IMG/VR virus record: IMGVR_UViG_3300045836_000008
Reading direction: 5' to 3' (one strand)
Length of the DNA stretch: 64,000 bases
Source of the DNA: a virus
Lineage: Duplodnaviria; Heunggongvirae; Uroviricota; Caudoviricetes
In this document: piece after piece, positions 25,973 through 41,181 of the stretch
Position numbering within the stretch: position 1 is the stretch's first letter
Layout of the letters: every line of letters begins with the position of its first letter
The notes under the pieces: model-generated
The model's input: the letters and a program-made list of their open reading frames with translations, nothing else
What the model was told of the DNA's origin: nothing
Databases searched by the model: none
Program-made: the position numbers and the translations under genes

Positions 25973-27700
25973 ATGAACAAGACGATTTCATCACTGGTGC
26001 AGTCACAGTTCCCGCAGTTCGTGCGGGAAGACTATCCCACACTCGTCGCGTTCATTCAAGCGTACTACCAGTATCTTGAACTGCAAAAGAATCCGCAAGA
26101 TGTCCTAACCAACCTGATGTCGTACCGCGACATCGATAGGACTCTTGACGAATTCGTTGTCAAGTTTGAGAAGGAGTACATTGATGGACTGCCGCAGAAT
26201 GTGGTGGGCGATAAGCGCCGCTTCATCAAGCACGTCACCGACCTGTACAACACAAAGGGGACGGAAGAATCGTATCGCCTGTTGTTCCGACTGCTGTTCG
26301 GTGAAGAAATCGAACTGTACTACCCGAAACAACAGATGCTTGTGGCATCGGGCGGTACATGGTCGCAACGCAATTCGATTCAGGTCATTCTCGATCCGGG
26401 CGTGTCACCGGATTGCGTCAACAAGACGATCAAGATCAATACAGCGAATGGCGTCATCAACACGTACATCACCGATGTGGTTGCGTTGAATGTCGAAGAA
26501 CGTCTGTATGAACTGTTCATCCACAAGAACTTCGCGATCCTTCCGAATCCGGGTGATCGCGTCGTCGGCAAGAACCTAGCCGGTACGTGTCAAGCAACAG
26601 CGATCCAAGCGGACATTCTGTCTGGTGGTGCTGGCTTCCATGTGGGACAGGTATTCGAAATCAACTCGGTGTTGGGTTCGGGTGCGAAGGTCAAGGTCAC
26701 GTCCGTCGATTCGAATGGTGCAATCAAGCGTCTCGCATTCATTCAATTCGGTACGAACTACGAAGCAAGCTTTCAGGTCGCACTCGACCCGAACGTTCGC
26801 ACGTCTGGCGCAATCAACCCATACGCGTCGTACACGAACGGCTTCATTGAATCGGTGCTGGTGACGAAGGTCACGTACTTCTCGTCGGACTACTGCGACA
26901 TCACGTATTCCGGCCAGATCATCGGTTCGTCGTACACGAACGACTACCGGCCAGACAACGCACTGGACCCTTCGGTGACACCGGCAGTGGTGCAGTTCGA
27001 ACTTGGCGCGCTATGCCCGTATCGCGGCGAATACACGTCTGCTGGCGGCTTCCTTTCTGATGTGAACGTCATTCAGGACGGCTACATGTATCAGGACTTC
27101 AGCTACGTCATCAAGACGAAGCAGAAGCTTGATGACTTCAAGAACATGGTGAAGAACCTTGTTCACCCGGCTGGTACTGCGATGTTCAGTGAGATGGACC
27201 TGACATCCGACATGGACGTGTCTGCTGCGTATGACTACGCGAAGGTTCTGTCTGCTGCACTGAAGTTCTTCGAGACGTTGACGCCTACTGATGCAATCCG
27301 CTTCCTGACTGGCAAGAGCCTGACGGATTCTTCAAAGCCGATTGACACGATCAGTAAGGCAATTGGCAAGGCTTTGAATGATGCGCAGTCGTCAATCGAT
27401 AGCGTGAAGCTGAAGACCGGTAAGAACCTGACCGAAACGCAGACATCGAGCGATACCGTCACCCTGAATACCGGCAAGAACCTGACGGATTCTTCGACGT
27501 TGGCCGATTCGATCAGCAAAGCGATTGACAAGCATCGTACCGATTCAATCACGTCCACGGATGCGATTGCGCTAAATACTAGCAGGACTATCACAGGTGA
27601 TTCAGTAAGTCCAGTGGATAACACTCCATCTGCACTACTGATCGATTACTGCGATTACACATATCTCGCCCAAAACTACGTGGGCACTGTTCTCATGTAA
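25973..27700 (+). CDS. gp7: Baseplate wedge initiator (gp7-like) with C-terminal 18-aa repeats
   Basis: QFPQFVREDYPTLVAFIQAYYQYLE, LYNTKGTEESYRLLFRLLFGE, IQDGYMYQDFSYVIK, VHPAG. Confidence 0.8.
   Translation: MNKTISSLVQSQFPQFVREDYPTLVAFIQAYYQYLELQKNPQDVLTNLMSYRDIDRTLDEFVVKFEKEYIDGLPQNVVGDKRRFIKHVTDLYNTKGTEESYRLLFRLLFGEEIELYYPKQQMLVASGGTWSQRNSIQVILDPGVSPDCVNKTIKINTANGVINTYITDVVALNVEERLYELFIHKNFAILPNPGDRVVGKNLAGTCQATAIQADILSGGAGFHVGQVFEINSVLGSGAKVKVTSVDSNGAIKRLAFIQFGTNYEASFQVALDPNVRTSGAINPYASYTNGFIESVLVTKVTYFSSDYCDITYSGQIIGSSYTNDYRPDNALDPSVTPAVVQFELGALCPYRGEYTSAGGFLSDVNVIQDGYMYQDFSYVIKTKQKLDDFKNMVKNLVHPAGTAMFSEMDLTSDMDVSAAYDYAKVLSAALKFFETLTPTDAIRFLTGKSLTDSSKPIDTISKAIGKALNDAQSSIDSVKLKTGKNLTETQTSSDTVTLNTGKNLTDSSTLADSISKAIDKHRTDSITSTDAIALNTSRTITGDSVSPVDNTPSALLIDYCDYTYLAQNYVGTVLM
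27311..27580 (+). repeat. Five degenerate 54-nt (18-aa) tandem repeats in the gp7 C-terminus
   Basis: GKSLTDSSKPIDTISKAI / GKALNDAQSSIDSVKLKT / GKNLTETQTSSDTVTLNT / GKNLTDSSTLADSISKAI / DKHRTDSITSTDAIALNT. Confidence 0.75.
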
Positions 27701-27708
27701 GGACCAAA

Positions 27709-28146
27709 ATGCAAGATTTTCTTAAAGCTGTTGGCACGCTTCAAATCGTCCTGACCGACGAGTTTGGCAATGTCAAGGAAACGCGTGACCTGAAGAACAT
27801 CGTCACGTCCGTGGGTAAGGCATGGATCGCGGCGATGATGGCTGCAACCCCGCCAGCACTGATGTCAAATATGGCAATCGGTACGGGCACGACTGCGGCT
27901 GACCCTTCACAAACAACTCTGGTCACGGAAACGGCACGCGTTGTGTTGTCGTCAACCGTGGTCAACTCGAATACCGTGACCTACACGGCAACGTTCGGCG
28001 CTGGTCAAGGTACTGGTGCAGTGACAGAAGCGGGCATTTTCAATGCTGCTACTGCTGGCACGATGCTGAACCGCACGACCTTCTCTGCAATCAACAAGGG
28101 CGCGTCTGACACCATCTCGATCACGTGGGTTGTCACGCTGCAATAA
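27709..28146 (+). CDS. Putative baseplate/tail structural protein
   Basis: MAIGTGTT...LVTETARV...VTEAGIFNAATAGTMLNRTTFSAINKG; located between gp7 and gp8. Confidence 0.75.
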   Translation: MQDFLKAVGTLQIVLTDEFGNVKETRDLKNIVTSVGKAWIAAMMAATPPALMSNMAIGTGTTAADPSQTTLVTETARVVLSSTVVNSNTVTYTATFGAGQGTGAVTEAGIFNAATAGTMLNRTTFSAINKGASDTISITWVVTLQ

Positions 28147-28152
28147 TAAGCC

Positions 28153-29703
28153 ATGACGAGTTACGTTCTCAAAAATTCCATTCACACGGCGGTATGTGAG
28201 ACGTTGATTGCGGACATTCGTGCGCAACGCTCGTCTTTCTACTTCTTCGTGGGCGGGCTACAGCTTCCGGGCGTGAACATCTCGACTGATGCCGATCCTT
28301 CGTATGCCTATGAATTGGACGCACGGAACGAAATCGTCTCGCTGAAGAAGCTTCAGTCATCCGATGTGTCGTTCGTGATCCCGCGTGTCAATTGGGTATC
28401 CGGTACGGTGTATGACTACTACGATGACTACTCGCCATCGTTCCCGTCATACTCGGGCGCAACCGACATCTCACAGGCAAAGTTCTACGTGATGAACTCA
28501 CAGTTCAACGTGTACAAGTGCCTGTCGAACAATGTCAATGGGCCGTCCACTGTCGAACCGACATCGACCCTTGCTGCACCGTTCTACACGGCGGATGGCT
28601 ATCGCTGGAAGTACATGTATGCGATCCCGCTGTCGATGCGCAATCGCTTCCTGAATTCGGCCTACATGCCGGTACAAACCGCGCTGCTGGACCAGTTCTA
28701 TTCGGCTGGTCAGATTGTCTCGAAGGTGATTCTGAATCCGGGTACGGGCTACGTTCAGGCATCCACATCAATCGTCGTTGAAGGCGACGGTACTGGTGCA
28801 GTGCTGACACCGGTCGTGTCGAACGGCCAGATCGTACAGGTGATCGTGAACAATCCGGGTTCTGGATACACGTATGCGAACCTGACGGTTGAAGGTGTGG
28901 GTTCTGGTGCAGAAATCGTTGCGGACCTGTCTGTAGGCGATTTGGACACGTCACAAGCTGACGTTGAACTGTTGGCCGTACCGGGTTCACTTGAAGCCTA
29001 TCGCATCACGGATCAGGGATTTGGCTACACACAGGCAACCGTCTCGATCACTGGCGATGGCACTGGTGCAACGGCACATGTGCAGATCAGCAACAACCGT
29101 ATCGTGGCCCTGATCGTGGACAACCCCGGCCAAGGCTACACGACTGCCACGGTGACGATCACTGGTGACGGTCTGGGCGCTACGGCGATCCCGGTCATCG
29201 CACCGTGGGGCGGTCATGGCAAGAATGCGGTCAATGAACTGTATGCACAACGTCTGTCGTTCTTCTCGAATCTGTTGAACGACAAGAACCAAGGTCTTCA
29301 GATCAGCAACCAGTTCCGCCAGATCGGCATCCTTCGCGCACCGACTGCGTATGGTAGCGATCAGCTTTACACGTCATTGAACGCTTCGGCCCTGATGCTG
29401 ATTAACTTCAGTGGTCCTGCACCAAGCAACAACGATGTGTTGGCTGAACAGAACACCGGCAAGCGGTTCCGCGTGATTCAGGTGACAGGTACGCAGATGG
29501 TCGTGCAGAACCTAGACAACTTTGCCCTGCAAGGAAACTCGGTTCTGTTGAATCAAAACTCGGGAAGCCAAGTTGGCGCAGTGACGATTGTGAATCCGCA
29601 AATCGACAAGTTCTCTGGTGATCTTCTGTTCATCGACAACTTTGCGATCAATCAGCAAGCGGGACAACAGATCATCATTTTCAAGACAACTCTCAAATTC
29701 TAA
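28153..29703 (+). CDS. gp8: Baseplate wedge subunit
   Basis: VIPRVNWVSGTVYDYYDD, FYVMNSQFNVYKCLSN, DGYRWKYMY, PWGGHG, FRQIGIL. Confidence 0.9.
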   Translation: MTSYVLKNSIHTAVCETLIADIRAQRSSFYFFVGGLQLPGVNISTDADPSYAYELDARNEIVSLKKLQSSDVSFVIPRVNWVSGTVYDYYDDYSPSFPSYSGATDISQAKFYVMNSQFNVYKCLSNNVNGPSTVEPTSTLAAPFYTADGYRWKYMYAIPLSMRNRFLNSAYMPVQTALLDQFYSAGQIVSKVILNPGTGYVQASTSIVVEGDGTGAVLTPVVSNGQIVQVIVNNPGSGYTYANLTVEGVGSGAEIVADLSVGDLDTSQADVELLAVPGSLEAYRITDQGFGYTQATVSITGDGTGATAHVQISNNRIVALIVDNPGQGYTTATVTITGDGLGATAIPVIAPWGGHGKNAVNELYAQRLSFFSNLLNDKNQGLQISNQFRQIGILRAPTAYGSDQLYTSLNASALMLINFSGPAPSNNDVLAEQNTGKRFRVIQVTGTQMVVQNLDNFALQGNSVLLNQNSGSQVGAVTIVNPQIDKFSGDLLFIDNFAINQQAGQQIIIFKTTLKF

Positions 29704-29714
29704 GTAGACCATAA

Positions 29715-30761
29715 ATGTCTCTATACACAATCGTCTATCGCAGCACTAAGGGGTCGCCACTTACGAATTCGGAAGTTGACGGCAACTTTCAGGCATTCGA
29801 TACATACAAGGTCAACGTGGACGGTTCGATGCCGTTCACTGGCCCGGTGACTGCACCTTCGTTTGTCGGTGTCCATAACGGCATCGTGCAGAACAGCGGC
29901 GCAAGCCAACTTGGTACGGGTACGTTCATCGGCTATGGTGCAACTGCTAACCAAGAAGTTGACTTCGGATTCCAGACGAATTCGGTTCAACGCTGGTATA
30001 TGTCCGTCAGTGGTACGGCGGGCGAGTTCTTTAAGCTGAACTACACAGACACATCGGGCAACTACAAGCAGACGACCTTCAGCGTGGATAACGCGACGGG
30101 TGTTCTGTCTTTCCCAAGCGTGGTTCCACAAATCACGGCGGCGATGCCATCCTTGTCGGACAGTTCATCGAACATTCCGACGACTGCATGGGTGCAAGGC
30201 CAAGGCTACATCACGGCCAATGGTACTGCTAAGTATGTGACCACGATCACGTCAGCACAGGTGACGGGCGCACTGGCTTACACACCGGTCCAACAGGGCA
30301 CAGGTACGGGCCAAGGTTCCAACGTCATCAAGATTGGTTGGGGCACGAATACCGGTAACGGTGTGAAGATCACGGTCGATTCGACGGACCAAGGCTTCAT
30401 TCCGATGTCGTCAACTGCTCCGGGTAAGTTCACGTACTCAGGCGACATCGTTGCAACCGGCAACGTCACGGCGTACTCGGATGAATCGCTGAAGAAGAAT
30501 TGGGATGCAGTCCCGTCCGACTTCGTTGAAAACCTGACCACGGTCAAGTCTGGTTCTTTCGAACGTGTTGACCTGAATGGCGAACGCCAAGTCGGTGTGT
30601 CGGCACAGTCGCTTCAAGAAGTGATGCCACTCGCCGTGCAACAAAACGATGATGGTCTGATGTCAGTGTCATACGGTAACGCGGCACTGGTCGCTGCTAT
30701 CGAATTGGCTAAACGTGTTGTCGAACTGGAAGCACGTCTGGCAGCACTCGAAGGGAAATAA
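29715..30761 (+). CDS. Tail fibre protein with C-terminal intramolecular chaperone (S74/ICA) domain
   Basis: RSTKGSPLTNSEVDGNF N-terminus; YSDESLKKN...GVSAQSLQEVMP...SVSYGN plus coiled-coil end. Confidence 0.8.
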   Translation: MSLYTIVYRSTKGSPLTNSEVDGNFQAFDTYKVNVDGSMPFTGPVTAPSFVGVHNGIVQNSGASQLGTGTFIGYGATANQEVDFGFQTNSVQRWYMSVSGTAGEFFKLNYTDTSGNYKQTTFSVDNATGVLSFPSVVPQITAAMPSLSDSSSNIPTTAWVQGQGYITANGTAKYVTTITSAQVTGALAYTPVQQGTGTGQGSNVIKIGWGTNTGNGVKITVDSTDQGFIPMSSTAPGKFTYSGDIVATGNVTAYSDESLKKNWDAVPSDFVENLTTVKSGSFERVDLNGERQVGVSAQSLQEVMPLAVQQNDDGLMSVSYGNAALVAAIELAKRVVELEARLAALEGK

Positions 30762-30764
30762 CCC

Positions 30765-32021
30765 ATGACAATCAAAACGTCTGGCACACTCGCCATGACG
30801 GACATCGCATCGGAATTCGGCGTCACCATTGGTGCGTCGTATCCGGTGTCGCTGTCGCAGTTCTACCGTGGCGGCAGTTTTGTCCCGAATGGTGCAGCGG
30901 CCAATGTCAACGTGCCTACGAGTGGGGCAATCTCAATTGGTTCGATGTATGGTGCATCGAAGGTTCTCACGCTGAACCTGACATCAAGCACGTACAACTT
31001 CAATTTGCTGAACGCGATCAATGGTGCTTATGGCACACAGACGCAAGCAGTCGTCGTCGCACTTACGATCAACTCGGGTGTGACGGTCGGCGCATCGTCA
31101 AGCTGGTGGGCGCTCGACATCGGTCAGTTCCCGGCTGGTTCGATCATCACCATCAACAACTACGGTTCGATCCAAGGTCAACCGGGTGCGGGCGGCGGTT
31201 ACTACTCTGGCGGCGGTCAAGGCGGTCACTGTATCAATGCCGCATACAGCAACCAGACGATGATTATCAACAACTACTCGTCTGGTCAGATCATCGCGGG
31301 CGGCGGCGGCGGCGGTTCTGGTGGTGCTGGCGGTACAGGTGGTCAAGGCGGCGGTGGTTACTGGCAATACAACTACTGGTCCCCGCAGCAATGGTCTGGT
31401 GCTGGCGGCGCGTATTCATGGTCGTGGGACTCGTACTTCAACGTCTCTGACGGCTATTGGGGCGGCGCTCACGTGTTCTCTGTCGGTGGTCAGCCGGGAC
31501 AGGTGAACAACTATCTGCGCGGCAACAACAACCAGAACACGGTAGGTACGGCCACAATTGGCGGTGGTGAGAACGCATACACGACCAACTACACGATCTA
31601 CTGGTACGCCATCATGCAGCTATGGACGGGTACGAACTACACGTCTGGTGGTGCTGGCGGCGGCGGCGGCGCTGGTGGTGCTGGTGGACACGGTACTGGC
31701 TATGGCACATCGGCTGTAGGTGGTGCTGGTGGTGCGGCTGGTGCTGGCGGCGGCTCGCCGGGTACGAATGCAGGTTGGGGCGGTCAAGGCGGTACGGGCG
31801 GCACTGGTGGTGCTGGCGGCGGTTGGGGTTCATATGGCGGCGCTGGTGCGACTGGCTACACCGGTAACACTGGTGGTGCTGGTAACAACGGCGGCGGCGC
31901 GGGCGGTGGTGCAGGTCAAGGTGGTGCTGGCGGCGGCGCACCGGGCTACTACATCTACCGCAATGGTTCGAACTGTTCGATCAACAATAGTGGCGGCTGG
32001 TTGGCTGGCCTACTGAGTTAA
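30765..32021 (+). CDS. Glycine-rich adhesin-like protein (gp38-like)
   Basis: SGTLAMTDIASEFG...SLSQFYRGG...VPTSGAISI N-terminus, then poly-Gly tracts (GGGGGGSGG, GGAGGGGG) flanking a Trp/Tyr-rich segment. Confidence 0.75.
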   Translation: MTIKTSGTLAMTDIASEFGVTIGASYPVSLSQFYRGGSFVPNGAAANVNVPTSGAISIGSMYGASKVLTLNLTSSTYNFNLLNAINGAYGTQTQAVVVALTINSGVTVGASSSWWALDIGQFPAGSIITINNYGSIQGQPGAGGGYYSGGGQGGHCINAAYSNQTMIINNYSSGQIIAGGGGGGSGGAGGTGGQGGGGYWQYNYWSPQQWSGAGGAYSWSWDSYFNVSDGYWGGAHVFSVGGQPGQVNNYLRGNNNQNTVGTATIGGGENAYTTNYTIYWYAIMQLWTGTNYTSGGAGGGGGAGGAGGHGTGYGTSAVGGAGGAAGAGGGSPGTNAGWGGQGGTGGTGGAGGGWGSYGGAGATGYTGNTGGAGNNGGGAGGGAGQGGAGGGAPGYYIYRNGSNCSINNSGGWLAGLLS

Positions 32022-32025
32022 ACAA

Positions 32026-32514
32026 ATGGCAGACACTTCAACACTCAAATACACAGTCGATGGTTACGATCCGGCACACAAGGTGCTGTTCGTGACCTTC
32101 CCCGATGAAGGCCGCAAGGTCAACATCGGTATCCAAACCTTTCCGACGACACAAGCTGATCTTGATGCAATCGTAAAGCCCTTTGCTGCACCGGTCGAAG
32201 CTGCTGCTGAAGCAATCGCGGCTGCAAAGGCGGATGATCCATCATTCGTCGCTTCGATTGTCGGCAAGACTCACGTCACGGCACGCATCTCAACTGAAGC
32301 GGCGAAGGGTGTGGACACTACGACCGCCAATGACCTTGTTGTTGGTGACACGACGCTGAAGGCCGAGAACGTGAAGTCTGCGGACGTGGCCTACATCAAG
32401 GCACTGATCGCAGAAGTTCTGGCCGATCAAGCGAAGGCTGTAGCGACTACGGCTACGACTGAAGCACAAACGGCTGCACCGGCAGTCGCTACAACCACAA
32501 CTGAAGCGAGCTAA
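32026..32514 (+). CDS. Hypothetical Ala/Thr-rich protein (possible fibre accessory)
   Basis: ORF directly after the adhesin gene. Confidence 0.65.
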   Translation: MADTSTLKYTVDGYDPAHKVLFVTFPDEGRKVNIGIQTFPTTQADLDAIVKPFAAPVEAAAEAIAAAKADDPSFVASIVGKTHVTARISTEAAKGVDTTTANDLVVGDTTLKAENVKSADVAYIKALIAEVLADQAKAVATTATTEAQTAAPAVATTTTEAS

Positions 32515-32516
32515 AC

Positions 32517-33476
32517 ATGAGTGACACGGCACAATACTACTTCCATCGTACATTGATGCCGCCACTCTCGAAGCCATCGGAGATTCCGCACCTGTATGAC
32601 CGGACGCAAAAGCTTTTCCCGCGTCCCGAAATCAAGTGCCTAACTCCGATTGGCGATCCGAATGGCGAGAAGTTCACTGTCGATGAACTGATGGCAAACC
32701 GCGTGCAGGAAATCATCGCGGCTGCGAATGGCCGTAGGATCGCAATCTGCTGGTCTGGTGGGCTTGATTCAACATCGGTGCTACTCGCCTTCATGGATGC
32801 CCTGAAGCCCGCTGAAATCAGTGTGGTGATGAACCAGAAGTCGATTGACGAGTATCCGCTGTTCTACGAGAAGTACATCAAGGATCAGATGAACGTGATC
32901 GAGATGCCGGAATACGCGGTCGAAGGCACGATGAATCAGGTCGTACTCGATGGTTACGTGGTGGTCACTGGCGAGATTGGCGATCAGATGTTCGGTTCGA
33001 TCAAGTACATGGAATACGAAGATCAAGCGGACCTGTTGAAGCCTTGGACAGAAGTCCTGAATGGTGTGTCCGCTGATACACGGTCGGCCTATCAAACACT
33101 GGTCAATGCCTGTCCGGTTCCGATGACGACCGTCAAGATGTTCTGGTGGTGGTTCAACTATGCGATCAAGTACCAAGGCGTACAGCTTCGCATGATGATT
33201 TCCGCACCGGACACGCGACTAAATGATAATGTGTTCCACTTCTTTGACAACAAGGCGTGGAACGATTGGTGTCTCTACACCGATCAGGAAGTCCGCTATC
33301 CGGGCACTGACCCGTTGCAGTACAAGAAGCCGCTGAAGGATTACATCCTGTCCAAGAATGGCGATCAGGACTACTACGCCCACAAGGGTAAGGTACGGTC
33401 ACTCATCATCTATCATGGCAAGCTGGCGCAGTTCTACGAAGCGGACACAATTGACATCAACTGGAAACGAACATGA
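32517..33476 (+). CDS. Asparagine-synthetase-like PP-loop ATP pyrophosphatase (no glutaminase domain)
   Basis: IAICWSGGLDST PP-loop; VVTGEIGDQMFG resembles the AsnB GEGADELFG motif. Confidence 0.7.
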   Translation: MSDTAQYYFHRTLMPPLSKPSEIPHLYDRTQKLFPRPEIKCLTPIGDPNGEKFTVDELMANRVQEIIAAANGRRIAICWSGGLDSTSVLLAFMDALKPAEISVVMNQKSIDEYPLFYEKYIKDQMNVIEMPEYAVEGTMNQVVLDGYVVVTGEIGDQMFGSIKYMEYEDQADLLKPWTEVLNGVSADTRSAYQTLVNACPVPMTTVKMFWWWFNYAIKYQGVQLRMMISAPDTRLNDNVFHFFDNKAWNDWCLYTDQEVRYPGTDPLQYKKPLKDYILSKNGDQDYYAHKGKVRSLIIYHGKLAQFYEADTIDINWKRT

Positions 33477-34144
33477 TTCTGAAGCAAGGTCGTATCACAT
33501 CCCAACACGAAGGCAACAAGGTATTCATCCACAAGGCGTATGGCTATTGGTTCATGTTCGATAGCCTGAACGGCAAACCGGGTACGTGGTACGGCATTTG
33601 TAAAGGCAATGACATCATCGTTGAGATGGACAAGTCCGGTGAACCGCAATTCATCTGCAAGGACCGTGTGTTCGCAGTGACGGGCGACTTGATCGAGATT
33701 CACACAGATCGCGGCATCCCCGCTGACCTGTACCTGATCTTCATCGAAGGCTACACCGGTCAGAACGTGCTTGGTGTGAAGGTGGAAGAGAAGGGCCGAC
33801 TGAAGTACATCGACGGCTGCACCGATTCACTGCTTGTCTATCCGCCACGTCTGGGTGATCCTGCACTGAACCATCTGCACTTCCCGCCCGGTATCGACCA
33901 GACATTCCATACGCATCCGTCGATCCGTGTTGGCATTGTCTACCGTGGTCACGGTGTGGCATCGTTCCCTGACGGTGAACACGAACTCGCTGAAGGCGAC
34001 ATCTTCATCCTTGAAGTGGGCGAAGAACACCGCTTCCGTACATCGGACAGCACGATGGACATCATTGCATTCCATCCCGACAGTGATACTGGTCCTACGG
34101 ATGAAGATCACCCGATGATTAACCGGACCATCATCGAAAAATGA
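33473..34144 (+). CDS. Cupin-domain protein
   Basis: FHTHPSIRVGIVYRGHG (HxH) and GDIFILEVGEEHRFRT cupin motifs. Confidence 0.75.
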   Translation: MILKQGRITSQHEGNKVFIHKAYGYWFMFDSLNGKPGTWYGICKGNDIIVEMDKSGEPQFICKDRVFAVTGDLIEIHTDRGIPADLYLIFIEGYTGQNVLGVKVEEKGRLKYIDGCTDSLLVYPPRLGDPALNHLHFPPGIDQTFHTHPSIRVGIVYRGHGVASFPDGEHELAEGDIFILEVGEEHRFRTSDSTMDIIAFHPDSDTGPTDEDHPMINRTIIEK

Positions 34145-34836
34145 ATCGTTGGGACTTCTCAAAGTCACGATCCAAGTATCACTTCGACCCGACCATCGTA
34201 GAAGACGATAATCTTCCATTCAAAATAGTGGGTCGGGTCGAAGGTGATCTTGTGGCGCACCTTCAGGCTGCGCTGCAAGCTAATCCCGTCCGGGCGAACG
34301 GGTTCAAGAATCGCCTACAAGTTCAGAACGATGTGACGCACAAGCCGTTCACATACGACATGGATCAGGAAGAACTACGTGACCTTGGTCTGCACGAAGA
34401 CCACACGTTCTTCAACAACCTGAAGCCCGCTACCGATGTTCTCTTGAAGATTCGAGACGCATTCGGTTTCAAGCCCGAACGGTTTGGCGGCGGGTTCCAT
34501 ATCCAGAAACCCGGCATGATGTTCCCGTACCATGTGGACGAGATTCCGAACATCAAGGACAACGATCCGAACCATTGGATCGATCAGCATCCCGAATCAG
34601 TAGCACGCCTAGAGATTATGGTGTACGACTGGCAACCGGGCCACGTCTGGGCCTATGGCAACACCTACTGGAAGCAATGGAAGGCCGGTGACATCGCATG
34701 GCACAACTGGCGCGATACGCCGCACGGCACATGCAACTTTGGTCGCACTGATCGCGTGACCCTTCAGGCAACCGGCTGGACGACAGACAAAACTATCAAA
34801 ATGATCGAATCCGGCAACAATGTTGTCTATATCTGA
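34141..34836 (+). CDS. 2OG-Fe(II) dioxygenase-like (Asp/Asn beta-hydroxylase-like) protein
   Basis: QKPGMMFPYHVD (HxD), WKAGD, PHGTCNFGRTDRVTLQATG (distal H and R). Confidence 0.75.
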   Translation: MNRWDFSKSRSKYHFDPTIVEDDNLPFKIVGRVEGDLVAHLQAALQANPVRANGFKNRLQVQNDVTHKPFTYDMDQEELRDLGLHEDHTFFNNLKPATDVLLKIRDAFGFKPERFGGGFHIQKPGMMFPYHVDEIPNIKDNDPNHWIDQHPESVARLEIMVYDWQPGHVWAYGNTYWKQWKAGDIAWHNWRDTPHGTCNFGRTDRVTLQATGWTTDKTIKMIESGNNVVYI

Positions 34837-34882
34837 CACTATCACGGCCAAGTGAAATCACACGGCCACGTTACGACACCCG

Positions 34883-34909
34883 ACCCGCCCTTGTGGCGGG
34901 TTTTCTTTT
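34883..34909 (+). terminator. Rho-independent terminator
   Basis: acccgcc-cttgt-ggcgggt followed by TTTCTTTT. Confidence 0.85.
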
Positions 34910-34910
34910 G

Positions 34911-34917
34911 CTAAATA
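34911..34917 (+). promoter_or_regulatory. Late promoter (CTAAATA)
   Basis: Immediately after the terminator, about 40 nt before ATG 34957. Confidence 0.75.
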
Positions 34918-34956: not shown

Positions 34957-37900
34957 ATGTCAGCCGAACTTTCAACATTCAACGCTGCGCCGTACTTTGA
35001 TGACTACGACGAAGAGAAGAAGTTCTACAAAATCCTGTTCAAGCCGGGTTACTCGGTACAGGCACGTGAACTGACGCAACTTCAGTCGATTCTTCAAAAG
35101 CAGATTCAGCGTCATGGCGACAACATCTTCAAGGATGGTGCGATGGTCGTGCCCGGTCAAGTATCGGTTGACACGTCCTTCCATTACGTGAAGGTGCAGA
35201 ACACGTACAACAATGGCACACAGGTCGCAAACTACACCGACAATCTGGTTGGTGCGATCCTTGTCGGCCAGACTACGGGTGTCATGGCACAGGTCGTGAT
35301 GGTGATCCACACGAACAGCGTGGACCCGGAAACCATCTATGTGAAGTACACATCGGCTGGCACTGACGGCGTGACGAAGGTCTTTGCGGACAACGAAGTT
35401 TTGATCCCGCAAGACACGTCACTGGCATCGTATGGCCTTCAGGCAATCGCATCGGGTTCGACCGGTGTGGGTTCGGCTGCATCCGTGAACAAGGGTGTGT
35501 ACTACATCGGCGGCTACTTCTGCTTGGTCGAACCGCAGACGATCATCCTTGACAAGTACACGAACAGCCCGTCATACAGCGTGGGCGTGAATGTCACGTC
35601 TGGCGCTGTCACGTCTGATGACGATGCGTCGCTGCTGGACAATGCCCTTGGTACGTACAACTACAGTGCGCCGGGTGCAGATCGTATGCAAATCGAATTG
35701 ACGCTGGACAAGCGTGCAATCGGTGCGACCAATACGGCCAACTTCGTGCAACTGTTCCAAGTTGTTGATGGCGTGATTCAGACGATGGTCGTGGACACGG
35801 CATACAACACCATCGCTGACACGATGGCACAACGCACCTACGAACAAGCCGGTGACTACACTGTTACACCGGCTACGCTCGATGTGCGTGAACACCGTAA
35901 CAACAATCGCGGCAACTGGAAGGCCAACACGACCTATGCAGTGGGTGACGTGGTGGTGTCGGGTTCGAACACCTATGTGGCTACGGTCGCGGGTGTGTCG
36001 GGTTCGACGGGTCCGAATGTGACGACTGGTACGCAAGTCGATGGTCAAGTCACGTGGACGTTCAATGCAAACCCATCGTACAACCGTGGTGTGTACACGC
36101 CTGAACAGGGCGGTGACGCAACCATGCTGGCGCTCGGTCTTGAACCGCTGACGGCCTATGTTCGCGGCTACCGTTTGAACAAGGTGTCGGTCGATTGGCT
36201 GTCAGTTCCGAAGGCACGTGATACGCAGTACAACGAATCGTCACACATCACGACGACCGTGGGTAACTACGTCCTTGTGACGAACGTGAACGGCATTCCG
36301 AAGATCGACCAGAATGCAACCGTGAACCTGTACGACCAGATGACGGTCACGCCGGGTGTGCAATCGGTTGGCAACCTTGTCGGTACGGCCCGCGCACGTG
36401 CATTCCAGTATGTGTCTGGCACGATTGGTACGCAGACCGCAGTGTATCTGCTGGCACTGTTCGACATCAAGATGAACAGCGGCAAGAACTTCAACACGAA
36501 CGTGAAGCAGTTCTTCATCAACTATGGTTCGACGGTCCTGAACTTCAGTGCAGACATTCAGCCGGTCACGACGCAACTGACGGGTTCCCTGTCGGCATCG
36601 TCAAGCACGACCGTGACTGGTAACGGCACGCTGTTCCAATCGCAACTGGTGGTTGGTGACTACTTCGTGACGGCTGGCGGTGTTAGCCGTGTGACGGCCA
36701 TTGCATCGAACACTTCGCTGACTGTCGCTACCGCAGTGACGATCACGAACAGTGCTGGTTGGGTGTATGACACGAAGCTGCTTGAACCGCAGAACAGCCC
36801 GAACGTGTTCAAGATGCCGAACTATGCGATCCAATCGGTTCGCTCGTCGGATGGCACGATTGGCACTTCGTACACGGTCCAACAGCGCTTCACTGGCACG
36901 GCCAATGCGTCGGGTGTCCTGACTATCGCAACAAGCGGTACGGATACGTTCGCATCGACGGCGCTGACATCGAACTACACGTGCGTGGACAACACGACTG
37001 GCGCGATCCTGTCACCGGCATCGATCACCCTGAACACGCCATCGAACAGCCAAGCTACGCTGACCTTCACTGCGTCACAAGCTTCGCACTCGATCAGCGT
37101 GATTGCAGCAGTGAACCGCCAAGGTTCGGGCACTGAGAAGATCAAGACCCTGAACACCGGTACGCTGGTGCTGACGACTGCGGCAACGGCTGGTGCATCG
37201 ACAATCACGCTTCCACAAGCTGACGGCTATGCACTCGTCTCGGTGATGCAGGACAGCGGCACGTTCGCTGCACCTACGGGCCAGTACACGAAGGACGTTA
37301 CGTCGAACTACACGTTCAATGACGGTCAGACGGACTCGTACTACGGTCTGGCATCGATCAGCCTGTCATCGACCGGTGTGGCTGCAACTGCGCCGATCAC
37401 GATCACGTACCAATACTTCTCGCACAGTTCGACGGGTGACTACTTCACGGTCAACTCGTACCTGTCAACGATGCAGTATCAGGACATCCCGTACTTCAAC
37501 GGTATGGCACTGCGTGACTGTATCGACTTCCGCCCGCGCATCTCGACCAATGGTCAAGACTTCGTGTCATCGGGTGCGATTGTGAACGGTGTGCCGGTGC
37601 GTGGCTACGATGTCATCACGAACTACACGAACTACCTTGGCCGTCAAGATAAGCTTGCACTGGCTTCGGATGGTACGTTCTTTGACGTGAAGGGCGTGTC
37701 GTCACTGACGCCAGCACTGCCGGATGATCCGTCAACGGCAATGGTCCTGTTCACGGTCAATCTGGAACCGTACACGTTTGGTACGAAGACGACCAACGTT
37801 GCAGTGACTACGATTGACAACAAGCGCTACACGATGCGTGATATTGGCGCATTGGACAAGCGTATTGCCAACCTTGAATACTACACGTCTCTGTCGCTGC

Positions 37901-40900
37901 TTGAACAGCAAACCACGTCGATGAACATCACCGATTCGACAGGTCTGACGCGTTACCAGAACGGTTTCATTGTGGACTCGTTCAATGGTCACGGTGTTGG
38001 CAACCCGTCGAACCCGGACTACATGTGTTCTATCGACATGACGAACAACATGCTGCGTCCGTTCTTCTCGATGGAGAACATCAACCTGATCGAGAACAAC
38101 ACCAACAACAGCCAACGTGCTGCGGCTGGTTATCAGGTGACGGGCGATGTGGTGACACTGCCGTACAGCCAAGTGTCGTTCATCTCGCAGCCGTATGCGT
38201 CGGAATACGTGAACGTCAACCCGTTCGCGGTCTATGCCTTCATCGGCCACACGGACCTTACACCGTCTTCGGACGAATGGTTCGATACGTACCAACTGCC
38301 AGACATCGTGACGAACGTGGACGGCAACTTCAACACCATTTCGGCACTCGCTGCGGCATCTGGTGTTCTGGGTACGGTGTGGAATGCTTGGCAGACCCAA
38401 TGGACCGGTGCAAGCACGACTAGCACGACGACCTACAATTGGGGCGTTCACACCAACACCTATTCGGTGAACGGTGGTCCGCTGCAACTGCGTCCTGCTT
38501 CGCAAGACAACCTTGGCAATGGTACGGGTCAAGCACGTACTCTGGTGACAGAGACGACCGCTACTACTGTCGGACAATCGCGTACTGGTATCAACACGCA
38601 GATCGTCCCACAGATCACCAACACGGTGACGGCAGACAACGTTGTGGCACAGGCGGTGATCCCGTACATTCGTGCCCGCAATGTGCAGTTCATGTCGCGT
38701 GGCCTGAAGCCGAACACGACGTTCTACCCGTTCTTTGATGGCACATCGGTTTCGGCCTATGTGACACCTTCGACGGCACTGAAGTACACGGCGGTATCGG
38801 GTTTCACGTCCGTGTTTGACTATCAGTCGAATGTGGGCGGTCTGGCCGATCAGTTCGCACGCCAGATTACCGGCAACACGAACAATGCACTCGATTCGGG
38901 TGACGTGGTGTATGTGGTGCAACGTGGTTCGACTAGCTACACCTTGACGAACAGCCCTGCTACGGCGGTGGTTGGTCTACAAGAGAACCATGCTGACGGT
39001 ACGCTTCAGTTGCAAGTCCTGAACATCCTTGGTTCATTCCAAGCTGGTGACGTGATTCAAGGTACGTTGTCGAACAGCCGTGGTACGTTGACGGTTGCCC
39101 CGACAGTCAGCAATGAAGGCGGCGCTCTGGTGTCGAACTTCAACGGTGACATCGTTGGCCTGTTCCAAATCCCTGATGACAATTCGCTGAAGTTCCGCAC
39201 TGGCACTCGCGAATTCAAGGTGACGGACAGTTCGACCAATGGTACGGATTCCACATCGTATGCAGCAGTGCAGTACACGGCAACCGGTATCCTTCAAACG
39301 AAGCAAGCGTATGTGACTTCGACCCGCAATGCGGAAATCGTTCAGACGCAAGTTTCGGATACCCAAACAGTTGTGCAGACTTCAACTTCGGTTGTGTCTG
39401 ACACTGGCTGGTGGGACCCACTTGCAGAAACGTTCCTTGTGAACAGCACTGACGGTGCGTTCCTGACTTCGGTTGACCTGTACTTCCAATCGAAGGACCA
39501 GAACATTCCGGTGCAGGTTGAAATCCGTGATGTGGTCAATGGCTATCCGGGTACGAATGTGTTGCCGTTCTCGCACACCGTGCTGACACCGGACAAGGTG
39601 AATGTGTCGCAAGACGCGAGCGTGGCAACCCGCTTCACCTTCGAATCGCCGGTCTACGTGAACGATGGCACTAGCTATGCGCTGGTGGTGATGTCCGATT
39701 CCAATGCGTACAACGTGTGGATCGCGACGCTCGGTGAGAAGGTTGTGAACTCCGACAGCTACATCTCGGAACAGCCTTACACTGGCGTGATGTTCGAATC
39801 GCAGAATGCTTCAACGTGGACTGCGAACCAGAACAGCGACATCAAGTTCACGATCAACCGTGCGAAGTTCGTGACGGGTCAGTATGGTGAAGTTGAGTTC
39901 GTGAACGCGCAGCCTGACCTTCACGCACTGATTGCAACACCGTTCCAGACGGCAAGCGGTTCAACGCTGGTTCGTGTGTTCGATCAGAACCACGGCAACC
40001 CGAACGGATCGTCAGTGACGATCAGCGGTGTGACGGCGGCAGTGAACGGCATCCCGGCTGCACAGTTGAACGGTACGTTCGTGATTAGCAATGTCGAATT
40101 CGACAGCTACACGATCAGCGTGTCATCGGCGGCAACATCGTCGGGTCTGGGCGGCAATGCTGGTGTGTATGCGACGGCTAACGTCACGTATGACACGCTG
40201 CAACCGGTGGTTCAAGCCCAAAGCTTCACGGATACGACTACGGCGTGGTTCGTGAAGACGACAACGGGCCAAACCCCGCGTGGTGGTACGGAAACCCCGT
40301 ATGTGTTGGATACGTCCTACTGGCCGGTCGTGGTGAACGACAACAACACGATTGGGAACACGTGTCTGGTAGCATCGGCACCGAACCAATCTGCGTCGAT
40401 CCTGAATGGTTCGAAGTCACTCTGGCTGAAGGGTCAGATGTACACGACGAACGATGCAGTTTCGCCGTTCATCGACATGCACCGTCTGTCAGCCATCGCG
40501 GTTCGCAACCGTATCGGTACGCCGACCCTTGCGAACACCAACGTGGCAGCGCTGGACGATGTGACCGTGGTCAGTGGCAACACCAACCTGTCGTTCTCGG
40601 GCAACCAGATCACGACAACGGACGCGACAACGAAGCAAGCACTACTGACTATCGTTCCGGGTACGTATGTTGTCATCTCGGGTACGGCGTCGAACAACGG
40701 CACGTTCCTGACCCAAGCTGTCGCAAGTGATGGTAGTTCGGTGACGTTTGCCAACACCTTCACGACGCAAGCAACAGGTACGGCAACGACGCTGGTGATG
40801 CACAGCCAGTTCCTTGACGAGACTGCACCGGCTGGTTCGACAACGATCAGCAAGTACGTGTCCAAGAAGGTGAACTTCTCCAACACATCGACGTATCTCC

Positions 40901-41181
40901 GGGTACAGATGGCGTTGGCAGTTCCGCCAGCGGGCAATGTGCTGGTGTACTACAAGGCGAACCCGGCTGGCCTGACGACTGGCTTTGACGCTCTTCCGTA
41001 TGTGCTGTTGAACCCTGACAGCGCGATCAAGAAGACGACCAACCAGACGTTCACGGACACGTCATACAGCCTGACCGGCATGGCAGCGTTCGATGCGATC
41101 CAAGTCAAGATCGTGATGCAGTCCACGGACTCTTCACAAGTACCACTGGTCAAAGACCTTCGCATCATCGCTTGCGCATAA
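34957..41181 (+). CDS. Large virion structural protein (VrlC/DUF4815-like)
   Basis: APYFDDYDEEKKFYKILFKPGYSVQARELTQLQSILQ, APGADR, KRYTMRDIGALDKRIANLEYYTSLSLLE, WWDPLAETF, PLVKDLRIIA. Confidence 0.85.
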   Translation: MSAELSTFNAAPYFDDYDEEKKFYKILFKPGYSVQARELTQLQSILQKQIQRHGDNIFKDGAMVVPGQVSVDTSFHYVKVQNTYNNGTQVANYTDNLVGAILVGQTTGVMAQVVMVIHTNSVDPETIYVKYTSAGTDGVTKVFADNEVLIPQDTSLASYGLQAIASGSTGVGSAASVNKGVYYIGGYFCLVEPQTIILDKYTNSPSYSVGVNVTSGAVTSDDDASLLDNALGTYNYSAPGADRMQIELTLDKRAIGATNTANFVQLFQVVDGVIQTMVVDTAYNTIADTMAQRTYEQAGDYTVTPATLDVREHRNNNRGNWKANTTYAVGDVVVSGSNTYVATVAGVSGSTGPNVTTGTQVDGQVTWTFNANPSYNRGVYTPEQGGDATMLALGLEPLTAYVRGYRLNKVSVDWLSVPKARDTQYNESSHITTTVGNYVLVTNVNGIPKIDQNATVNLYDQMTVTPGVQSVGNLVGTARARAFQYVSGTIGTQTAVYLLALFDIKMNSGKNFNTNVKQFFINYGSTVLNFSADIQPVTTQLTGSLSASSSTTVTGNGTLFQSQLVVGDYFVTAGGVSRVTAIASNTSLTVATAVTITNSAGWVYDTKLLEPQNSPNVFKMPNYAIQSVRSSDGTIGTSYTVQQRFTGTANASGVLTIATSGTDTFASTALTSNYTCVDNTTGAILSPASITLNTPSNSQATLTFTASQASHSISVIAAVNRQGSGTEKIKTLNTGTLVLTTAATAGASTITLPQADGYALVSVMQDSGTFAAPTGQYTKDVTSNYTFNDGQTDSYYGLASISLSSTGVAATAPITITYQYFSHSSTGDYFTVNSYLSTMQYQDIPYFNGMALRDCIDFRPRISTNGQDFVSSGAIVNGVPVRGYDVITNYTNYLGRQDKLALASDGTFFDVKGVSSLTPALPDDPSTAMVLFTVNLEPYTFGTKTTNVAVTTIDNKRYTMRDIGALDKRIANLEYYTSLSLLEQQTTSMNITDSTGLTRYQNGFIVDSFNGHGVGNPSNPDYMCSIDMTNNMLRPFFSMENINLIENNTNNSQRAAAGYQVTGDVVTLPYSQVSFISQPYASEYVNVNPFAVYAFIGHTDLTPSSDEWFDTYQLPDIVTNVDGNFNTISALAAASGVLGTVWNAWQTQWTGASTTSTTTYNWGVHTNTYSVNGGPLQLRPASQDNLGNGTGQARTLVTETTATTVGQSRTGINTQIVPQITNTVTADNVVAQAVIPYIRARNVQFMSRGLKPNTTFYPFFDGTSVSAYVTPSTALKYTAVSGFTSVFDYQSNVGGLADQFARQITGNTNNALDSGDVVYVVQRGSTSYTLTNSPATAVVGLQENHADGTLQLQVLNILGSFQAGDVIQGTLSNSRGTLTVAPTVSNEGGALVSNFNGDIVGLFQIPDDNSLKFRTGTREFKVTDSSTNGTDSTSYAAVQYTATGILQTKQAYVTSTRNAEIVQTQVSDTQTVVQTSTSVVSDTGWWDPLAETFLVNSTDGAFLTSVDLYFQSKDQNIPVQVEIRDVVNGYPGTNVLPFSHTVLTPDKVNVSQDASVATRFTFESPVYVNDGTSYALVVMSDSNAYNVWIATLGEKVVNSDSYISEQPYTGVMFESQNASTWTANQNSDIKFTINRAKFVTGQYGEVEFVNAQPDLHALIATPFQTASGSTLVRVFDQNHGNPNGSSVTISGVTAAVNGIPAAQLNGTFVISNVEFDSYTISVSSAATSSGLGGNAGVYATANVTYDTLQPVVQAQSFTDTTTAWFVKTTTGQTPRGGTETPYVLDTSYWPVVVNDNNTIGNTCLVASAPNQSASILNGSKSLWLKGQMYTTNDAVSPFIDMHRLSAIAVRNRIGTPTLANTNVAALDDVTVVSGNTNLSFSGNQITTTDATTKQALLTIVPGTYVVISGTASNNGTFLTQAVASDGSSVTFANTFTTQATGTATTLVMHSQFLDETAPAGSTTISKYVSKKVNFSNTSTYLRVQMALAVPPAGNVLVYYKANPAGLTTGFDALPYVLLNPDSAIKKTTNQTFTDTSYSLTGMAAFDAIQVKIVMQSTDSSQVPLVKDLRIIACA

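Follow-up and report, generated by a model that had tools for sequence, protein, structure and literature searches.

A cassette of three enzyme genes lies shortly behind the receptor-binding genes of IMGVR_UViG_3300045836_000008, an IMG/VR record of a tailed virus (Caudoviricetes). The window referred to below is the whole stretch of 64,000 nucleotides that was analysed, and coordinates are in window numbering unless another locus (L) is named. The genes, all on the forward strand, encode a PP-loop ATP pyrophosphatase that represents a stand-alone synthetase domain of the AsnB type (gene 1, 32517-33476, 319 amino acids (aa)), a bicupin metalloprotein (gene 2, 33473-34144, 223 aa), and a 2-oxoglutarate (2OG)/Fe(II) oxygenase (gene 3, 34141-34836, 231 aa). 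The conserved core of the cassette consists of the PP-loop enzyme and the cupin, and the whole belongs to a large, undescribed PP-loop/cupin system that phages attach to their host-recognition modules. We regard the identities of the enzymes, and the functional pairing of the PP-loop protein with the cupin, as highly probable; that a protein of the adhesin module is their target is a tentative proposal. Full-text searches of the literature revealed no account of the PP-loop/cupin pair, nor of a Gp38-type adhesin that is modified by enzymes.

Enzymes of the cassette

The three genes have numerous homologues, and comparison with three relatives gives ratios of nonsynonymous to synonymous substitution (dN/dS) of 0.09-0.32 for every one of them, i.e., all three evolve under purifying selection; therefore, they are real genes and not chance open reading frames (ORFs).

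Gene 1 carries the PP-loop signature SGGLDS at residues 80-85. In an alignment of 23 homologues, the invariant columns include S80, G81, G82, S85, T86, E153, D156, Q157, G160 and K218, and D84 is kept in at least 90% of the sequences. The conserved motifs of the family are SGG(L/I)DS(T) and (V/I)(T/S)GE(I/L)xDQxFG(S/A), the latter represented by GEIGDQxFGS in the window protein. The AlphaFold model of gene 1 (predicted local distance difference test score, pLDDT, 92.7) is closest to the AsnB class of synthetases, with VIA Z scores of 14.0 for TsnB9, 13.6 for ASNS, 13.1 for beta-lactam synthetase, 12.1 for AsnB and 11.7 for carbapenam synthetase (CarA); the best Foldseek matches belong to the same class. 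These alignments extend over 197-247 residues, at 10-17% sequence identity. Other PP-loop families (FAD synthase, GMP synthase, LarE, NAD synthetase) score 8.5 or less, with QueC at 5.6, TilS at 6.1-7.2 and TtuA/NcsA at 6.1-7.0.

Judged by its sequence, gene 1 is a distant member of the AsnB class. Its match to the Pfam family Asn_synthase (PF00733) scores 13.8 bits, below the 21-bit cut-off, and covers residues 73-99 only; weak sequence matches to AsnB, LarE, NAD synthetase, TtcA and QueC are likewise confined to the PP-loop region. Sequence searches find no GATase match in gene 1, and since the model aligns to the solved 490-576-residue enzymes only from about their residue 130-190 onwards, the glutaminase domain is absent. 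Cellular relatives of gene 1 that also lack this domain are present in AlphaFold DB (TM-scores 0.66-0.77). Gene 1 shares the SGGxDS signature, the second glycine/acidic motif and the fold with class II asparagine synthetases (E. coli AsnB, PDB structure 1ct9, and human ASNS), beta-lactam synthetase (1jgt), carbapenam synthetase (1q15) and the hydroxyamidotransferase TsnB9 (7ylz). It differs from these enzymes in its short length, the lack of the N-terminal nucleophile (Ntn) glutaminase domain, the low sequence identity and its partners, a cupin and a small protein. By analogy with the family, the expected chemistry is the same, and we assign to gene 1, with fair confidence, adenylation of a carboxylate followed by amide formation.

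The gene 2 product scores above the Pfam cut-offs for Cupin_2 (PF07883; 30.3 bits, cut-off 27.2) and AraC_binding (34.5 bits, cut-off 21.1). Seven residues, C116, H146, H148, R152, H186, H201 and H213, are invariant in 22 sequences, and H146-x-H148 followed by H186 makes the HxH...H arrangement of the C-terminal barrel. The Atlas model has bicupins as its neighbours, indicating a two-barrel fold; this architecture resembles that of bicupin clusters of the (S)-ureidoglycine aminohydrolase type (TM-score 0.74), and the C-terminal barrel with HxH...H is a further point of likeness. Profile matches to PDB entries are weak (E-value 2.6e-4 or weaker) and cover the barrel core only. In contrast to other Cupin_2 and AraC-binding cupins, the family has conserved motifs of its own, YIDGC(T/S)DS and HPDSDxGPTDExHPMxNRT, and is almost always encoded beside a PP-loop ATPase.

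The product of gene 3 retains H131-x-D133, H195 and R205 in all 21 aligned sequences; the arginine, located ten residues past the distal histidine, corresponds to the basic residue that binds the C5 carboxylate of 2OG in such enzymes. It is modelled (pLDDT 93.7) as a double-stranded beta-helix that matches prolyl hydroxylases, AspH, SnoK and other 2OG oxygenases at Z scores of about 10 (9.8-10.2). The fold and the HxD...H triad are those of 2OG hydroxylases such as the P. putida prolyl hydroxylase of EF-Tu (4iw3), the collagen prolyl hydroxylase of PBCV-1 (5c5t), AspH, and the proline 3- and 4-hydroxylases. No Pfam family matches gene 3 at threshold, PF05118 included; AspH is among the tied fold matches, and viral clusters with PF05118 in 19% of their members are among its feature-based neighbours. 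Because so many subfamilies tie in Z, the fold does not specify the substrate class. A sequence-only reading of the same DNA had taken the three products for a PP-loop ATP pyrophosphatase without a glutaminase domain, an HxH cupin and an HxD...H dioxygenase, and all three assignments hold.

That reading had also compared gene 1 to lasso cyclases. Lasso-peptide cyclases (McjC type) are homologous to AsnB and introduce an isopeptide bond into a peptide, and under the interpretation that we prefer (see below) gene 1 would resemble them in being an AsnB-like domain acting on the product of an adjacent gene. The likeness is one of analogy only. Pfam and PHROG scans of the genes between 28153 and 34836 detect no B-type protease, PqqD-like recognition element (RRE) or short precursor, the neighbours of the enzymes being 162 and 418 aa long, and fold searches with gene 1 return no solved lasso cyclase among their matches. 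The identification of gene 1 as a lasso cyclase is rejected on account of the missing protease and RRE partners.

The PP-loop/cupin pair in phages and bacteria

Viral, metagenome and genome collections yielded 181 loci that encode a PP-loop homologue. A cupin gene is found within 2.5 kilobases (kb) of the PP-loop gene in 79 of them, including 42 of the 74 loci that come from bacterial genome assemblies. At least 446 viral stretches encode the cupin. Of 73 viral loci gathered with the cupin as the starting point, 61 have an ORF with the SGGx[D/N]S signature no more than 2.5 kb away, and this ORF directly adjoins the cupin gene in 46. Homology clustering divides the PP-loop partners of the cupin into the AsnB-like family of gene 1 (27 loci), IbrA-like PAPS_reduct/DUF3440 proteins (35 loci) and a third PP-loop type (7 loci). 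The high frequency of this association and the diversity of the partners indicate that the cupin is a general partner of PP-loop ATPases. In locus L017 the order of the two genes is reversed, cupin first, and the pair still resides beside the adhesin and small-protein genes. Whatever the target may be, the presence of the cupin beside a PP-loop ATPase in most viral loci, together with the three-gene operons of bacteria described below, marks out an extensive two-enzyme system that is unstudied.

The oxygenase is less tightly associated and accessory to the PP-loop/cupin pair. Homologues of gene 3 accompany the PP-loop gene in the group of phages to which the window belongs, in the contig of P0012, and in L038-L041, L045 and one other contig; most homologues of gene 3 occur alone, in islands of metabolic genes that lack the PP-loop and cupin genes. 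The three genes, treated as a single pathway in the sequence-only reading, do recur together elsewhere, the tight unit being the PP-loop gene with the cupin. Close relatives of the window (65-85% identity) preserve the full order of fibre, Gp38-like adhesin, small protein, PP-loop enzyme, cupin, oxygenase and giant DUF4815 protein. Two of these relatives have tandem oxygenase paralogues after the cupin (L237:10723-12162 and L238:10708-12146), where the window has one.

In phages, the recurrent gene order is an adhesin or fibre tip, usually a small protein of about 100-215 aa, and then the PP-loop gene. The succession of receptor-binding and PP-loop genes is observed in T4-like myoviruses (the window, L237-L239 and L017), in a contig with a GpJ-type central fibre, in SU10-like and T7-like contigs, and in a P2-like prophage of Xanthomonas (L130). 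The cultured Pseudomonas phage Cygsa01 (PP179332.1, genes Cygsa01_00008 to Cygsa01_00011) encodes a fibre, a 278-aa glycine-rich protein, a PP-loop protein, a 90-aa protein and another PP-loop protein; one of the two paralogues has a degenerate signature, SGGVDC, and both are automatically annotated as MnmA. This phage carries the adhesin/PP-loop arrangement and provides a cultured test case; the system is now directly testable. Tandem paralogous PP-loop genes are seen in several phages (L005:6850-9128, L013:1829-4047, L326:5941-8090).

A census of the proteins encoded upstream of the PP-loop gene, with 65 proteins of at least 140 aa from about 76 non-redundant phage or metagenome loci, shows phrog_10745 (10 proteins), the tail-fibre family phrog_2056 (10), Pfam GP38 (9) and phrog_11439 (7) to be the commonest families; 15 of the 65 proteins form one homologous cluster. 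The PP-loop lineages that share the receptor-binding adjacency are only 23-37% identical and are associated with differing fibre types. In the PP-loop tree, bacterial and phage proteins broadly separate, and the PP-loop genes linked to Gp38 and to T7-type fibres fall in one clade (22 rows, support of 96 in the Shimodaira-Hasegawa-like approximate likelihood ratio test, SH-aLRT).

Compact bacterial operons are found in Flavobacteriia, Cytophagia, Saprospiraceae, Acidobacteriota and others. They take the form of cupin, 127-aa protein and PP-loop enzyme, or of membrane-anchored 160-aa protein, PP-loop enzyme and cupin. In some Proteobacteria and Acidobacteriota, the pair is located beside a sedolisin-type peptidase with a pro-kumamolisin activation domain and an unassigned protein of 400-480 aa (L080:3703-9984, L121:3881-9890, L088:8116-9804).

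Several other arrangements of the same families were observed in viral loci. In 35 of the 73 viral cupin loci, the cupin is encoded beside an IbrA-like PAPS_reduct/DUF3440 protein and one or two ParB-like proteins (L028:5692-8242, L029:5806-9121, L031:841-3382, L242:2578-5531), and in the inspected loci (L028-L031) this cluster precedes, by a few genes, ORFs of the size of the terminase large subunit. It looks like an undescribed module of three or four genes. The cupin family is common to these IbrA/IbrB-like phage pairs and to the cassette, but the former have a PP-loop protein of another family and ParB-like partners and are found away from fibre genes; none of these genes is present in the window cassette. 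Genes for parts of carboxylate-type transporters (DctP, TctA, a protein of the sodium:solute symporter family), an unusual phage cargo, directly follow PP-loop homologues of T7-like and other phage contigs at L005:9452-13979, L007:9079-13213 and L018:7801-9003. An enzyme island at L038:2104-10685, also present in L039-L041, consists of two paralogues of about 291-299 aa, two GNAT acetyltransferases, an oxygenase, a 211-aa protein, a 372-aa PP-loop homologue, a D-Ala-D-Ala carboxypeptidase with a signal peptide and, on the opposite strand, a protein with a weak QueC-like PP-loop match. At L045:2348-8768, one strand encodes a ClpP-like protease, a PP-loop homologue, a 198-aa protein, a cupin and a cell-wall hydrolase, and the other an oxygenase followed by an AspH-family hydroxylase and a beta-ketoacyl synthase.

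The fibre operon and the proteins next to the enzymes

The cassette occupies the 3' end of an operon of baseplate, fibre and adhesin genes. Genes 1 and 2, as well as genes 2 and 3, are joined by 4-base ATGA overlaps, and gene 1 starts 2 bases past the end of the preceding ORF; all genes in the interval 27709-34836 are on one strand and are separated by gaps of at most 13 bases or overlap by 4 bases. The forward-strand genes ahead of the enzymes encode a baseplate wedge subunit-like protein (28153-29703, 516 aa; phrog_438, E-value 3.9e-94), a short fibre protein with a C-terminal S74 intramolecular chaperone domain (29715-30761, 348 aa; Pfam Peptidase_S74, 24.8 bits with a cut-off of 22, and matches to tail-fibre PHROGs), a Gp38-like adhesin (30765-32021, 418 aa, 28% Gly; phrog_10745, E-value 8.5e-11), and a small partner protein of 162 aa (32026-32514). 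After the cassette there is a hairpin with a T-run resembling an intrinsic terminator (34882-34909, forward strand; stem at 34882-34902 with 8 pairs, 6 of them GC, followed by TTCTTTTGCT). Next comes the forward-strand gene for a 2074-aa structural protein of the DUF4815 type (34957-41181), whose orthologues carry DUF4815. The arrangement described in the sequence-only reading, i.e., three coupled enzyme genes behind the fibre and adhesin genes and ahead of a terminator, is thus borne out.

The sequence CTAAATA is present in 14 copies in the window, with 1.4 expected. The copies are mostly on the forward strand, several just 5' of forward-strand ORF starts, and span positions 718-59784 (e.g., 6419, 13709, 27572, 34911, 41359, 43447, 52174, 52997, 57767 and 59778). 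The copy at 27572-27578 is the nearest one upstream of the operon, and that at 34911-34917 precedes the DUF4815-type gene; both are on the forward strand. Judging from this enrichment and placement, CTAAATA is probably the core of the late promoter of this phage. The T4 late consensus TATAAATA has no copies in the window, and the forward strand has no sigma-70-like site better than 9 of 12 positions between 27000 and 35500, in agreement with the earlier statement that no early promoter was seen. The most economical reading would be a single late transcript that starts near 27572 and runs up to the terminator; the coexpression with virion proteins that had been proposed is plausible on the strength of the CTAAATA sites at 27572 and 34911.

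DNA of the source phage, which is uncultured, occurs in soil and rhizosphere metagenomes, and no RNA run is listed as containing the sequence. Its syntenic relatives of 128-177 kb contain T4-like baseplate genes (gp25, gp6 and the wedge protein). Among 50,697 records of cultured phages, blastn with the segment 32000-35000 gives no match; tblastn searches of cultured phages give none for the PP-loop enzyme and the cupin, and for the oxygenase only a weak match to a 2OG oxygenase of a cyanophage.

The 418-aa adhesin has no Pfam match at E-values of 0.1 or less, and its assignment is based on phrog_10745 and on its relatives: orthologues in L237-L239, 62-69% identical, carry the precomputed Pfam annotation GP38 (PF05268), and the adhesin of L009 scores 42.7 bits for the same family. 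It aligns with Gp38-like adhesins found upstream of PP-loop genes in other phages, and its N-terminal domain (30765-31244) is common to short fibre-tip proteins of T7-like contigs that are not glycine-rich (L201, L218). With the Gp38 modules of T-even and S16-type phages, the window shares the order of fibre, glycine-rich Gp38-like tip and accessory genes on one strand. To our knowledge, the accessory genes of known Gp38 modules encode chaperones and not ATP- or oxygen-dependent enzymes. A search for Gp38-like adhesin loci by poly-glycine-like alignment gave six loci, none with the enzymes, too few to show how often such adhesins carry them.

The 162-aa protein, for which Pfam and PHROG searches give no family match, has conserved blocks at both ends, joined by a linker rich in Ala and Thr; the C-terminal block is predicted to be helical. 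Homologues hold the equivalent position in L237-L239, L009 and L010. Co-folding of this protein with the PP-loop enzyme scores 0.49, against 0.01 for the best control, with at least 13% contact agreement between runs and a partner pLDDT of at least 50. Of 80 solved complexes, 58 attain the mark used in co-folding, as do 2 of 110 mismatched pairs; among scores of 0.60 or less, however, it is reached by only 7 of the 80 solved complexes and by both of the passing mismatches, so that the result lends weak support to an interaction. The small proteins of phages and those of bacteria show no relation when their profiles are compared, the bacterial protein has no solved structural relative, and a hidden Markov model of the phage protein does not detect the 90-aa protein of Cygsa01, which resembles it by eye only. 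The idea that the small protein is a ubiquitin-like carrier is rejected, as none of those inspected ends in Gly-Gly.

Possible targets of the cassette

The explanation that we prefer is a late-expressed tailoring cassette that belongs to the receptor-binding module of the phage. Gene 1 would adenylate a carboxylate at the expense of ATP, and attack by ammonia or an amine would then yield an amide or isopeptide bond. The bicupin, its evolutionary partner, probably has a metal site built from the invariant histidines and cysteine, and may supply or handle the nucleophile or oxidise the same substrate; in the lineage of the window, the 2OG/Fe(II) oxygenase would add a hydroxylation. The target would be a protein of the adhesin module, either the glycine-rich Gp38-like adhesin or the small protein encoded between the adhesin and the enzymes, and the modification would take place in the infected cell, before fibre assembly. 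Four observations point in this direction, if tentatively: the persistent position of the PP-loop gene in lineages as divergent as 23-37% identity, the constant presence of a small neighbour, the shared and presumably late operon, and the weak co-folding signal. In its boldest and still tentative form, this reading makes the amide or isopeptide linkage and the hydroxylation, on the adhesin or on the small protein next to it, a dedicated post-translational maturation pathway for the fibre tip that would move between phages with the adhesin gene; more generally, the cupin family would be an obligate partner of PP-loop ATPases that had gone unrecognised. Receptor-binding proteins set the host range, and they are usually viewed as plain gene products served by chaperones only. 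If the cassette chemically alters the adhesin or the receptor, host range would depend on chemical steps to which the adhesin sequence gives no clue, with consequences for host-range prediction and phage engineering.

Several observations weigh against an adhesin-module target, and most of them also speak for a different possibility, again a tentative one, namely that the substrate of the PP-loop/cupin pair is no virion protein but either a small carboxylate in free form (such as an amino acid, a sugar acid, or a di- or tricarboxylate) or a carboxylate of the host envelope (peptidoglycan, lipopolysaccharide, capsule). The pair would then amidate and oxidise this substrate, and the oxygenase would hydroxylate it. 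The closest solved structural relatives of gene 1, i.e., TsnB9, AsnB/ASNS, beta-lactam synthetase and carbapenam synthetase, all act on small molecules. About half of the PP-loop family is encoded in bacterial chromosomes, in cupin/small-protein/PP-loop operons that lie among housekeeping genes and have no fibre gene. In other phages, three kinds of carboxylate transporter or binding protein, DctP, TctA (T7-like contigs) and a sodium:solute symporter-family protein, adjoin PP-loop homologues, and one phage subclade (L038-L041 and L045) has the genes in enzyme islands away from fibres, with GNAT acetyltransferases, a D-Ala-D-Ala carboxypeptidase, a cell-wall hydrolase, AspH and ketoacyl synthase for neighbours. 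The preference of the oxygenase family for metabolic-gene islands without the other two genes, and the location of the cassette at the extreme 3' end of its operon, before the terminator, agree with the same possibility. The linkage to receptor-binding genes would in that case reflect alteration of the receptor, such as its masking on infected cells or debris, or else a late fibre operon whose end tolerates cargo. The comparison for receptor masking is T5 Llp, which is encoded next to the gene for the T5 receptor-binding protein.

Three further observations weigh against an adhesin-module target. The N-terminal domain of the adhesin, mostly annotated as hypothetical, is found in 33 cultured phages of Vibrio, Xanthomonas, Ralstonia, Sinorhizobium, Stenotrophomonas and Burkholderia in which neither a PP-loop nor a cupin homologue is detectable; therefore, the enzymes are not generally needed for adhesins of this type. 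The small upstream proteins of different lineages have no detectable homology to one another. Finally, the receptor-binding-linked PP-loop genes fall in one clade, and their linkage with Gp38-like proteins may be of single origin, with later spread as a module. Against a small-carboxylate or envelope target, the adjacency to receptor-binding genes persists across the divergent PP-loop lineages and across fibre types, whereas genes carried as passive cargo should be scattered. The PP-loop gene almost always has a small protein that is no enzyme beside it, which is unusual for a small-molecule pathway; the window has no transporter in or beside the cassette; and late expression in a lytic phage would leave little time for envelope remodelling. 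The sequence-only reading had envisaged a tailoring pathway acting on adhesin or fibre residues, a small molecule or nucleic acid. The enzymes and their adhesin context are as it described, but computation alone does not narrow the list of substrates, given the bacterial operons without a fibre gene, the association of the cupin with other PP-loop ATPases, and the adjacent carboxylate transporters.

Modification of phage DNA or tRNA appears improbable; here a base would be adenylated before amination or thiolation, a reaction known from many PP-loop ATPases, and would also be the substrate of the cupin and the oxygenase. Members of the cupin family, 50-60% identical in the C-terminal barrel, do occur beside IbrA-like and ParB-like proteins in the 35 viral loci mentioned above, gene 1 has the weak matches to LarE, TtcA, QueC and NAD synthetase in its PP-loop region only, and the Cygsa01 homologues bear the MnmA label, which is automatic. 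Against this, the fold of gene 1 is of the AsnB class (Z 11.7-14.0) and not that of QueC, TilS or TtuA/NcsA; the Pfam and PHROG scans show no neighbours of the ParB, DpdA, FolE, QueD or QueE types; and the cassette is part of the fibre operon, not of a replication or packaging region. The specific candidate of QueC-like 7-deazaguanine DNA modification is rejected in view of the QueC Z score of 5.6 and the absence of the partner families FolE, QueD, QueE and DpdA among the neighbours. Still less probable is a non-catalytic role, with the three proteins serving as enzyme-derived chaperones of fibre assembly or as minor virion components. The gene directly after a receptor-binding gene in phages often encodes an assembly chaperone, and the SGGVDC loop of one Cygsa01 paralogue is degenerate; however, the bacterial members of these families have no fibre to assemble, the dN/dS values are those of genes under purifying selection, and in all three families, phage and bacterial members alike keep the ATP-binding and catalytic-type residues without variation.

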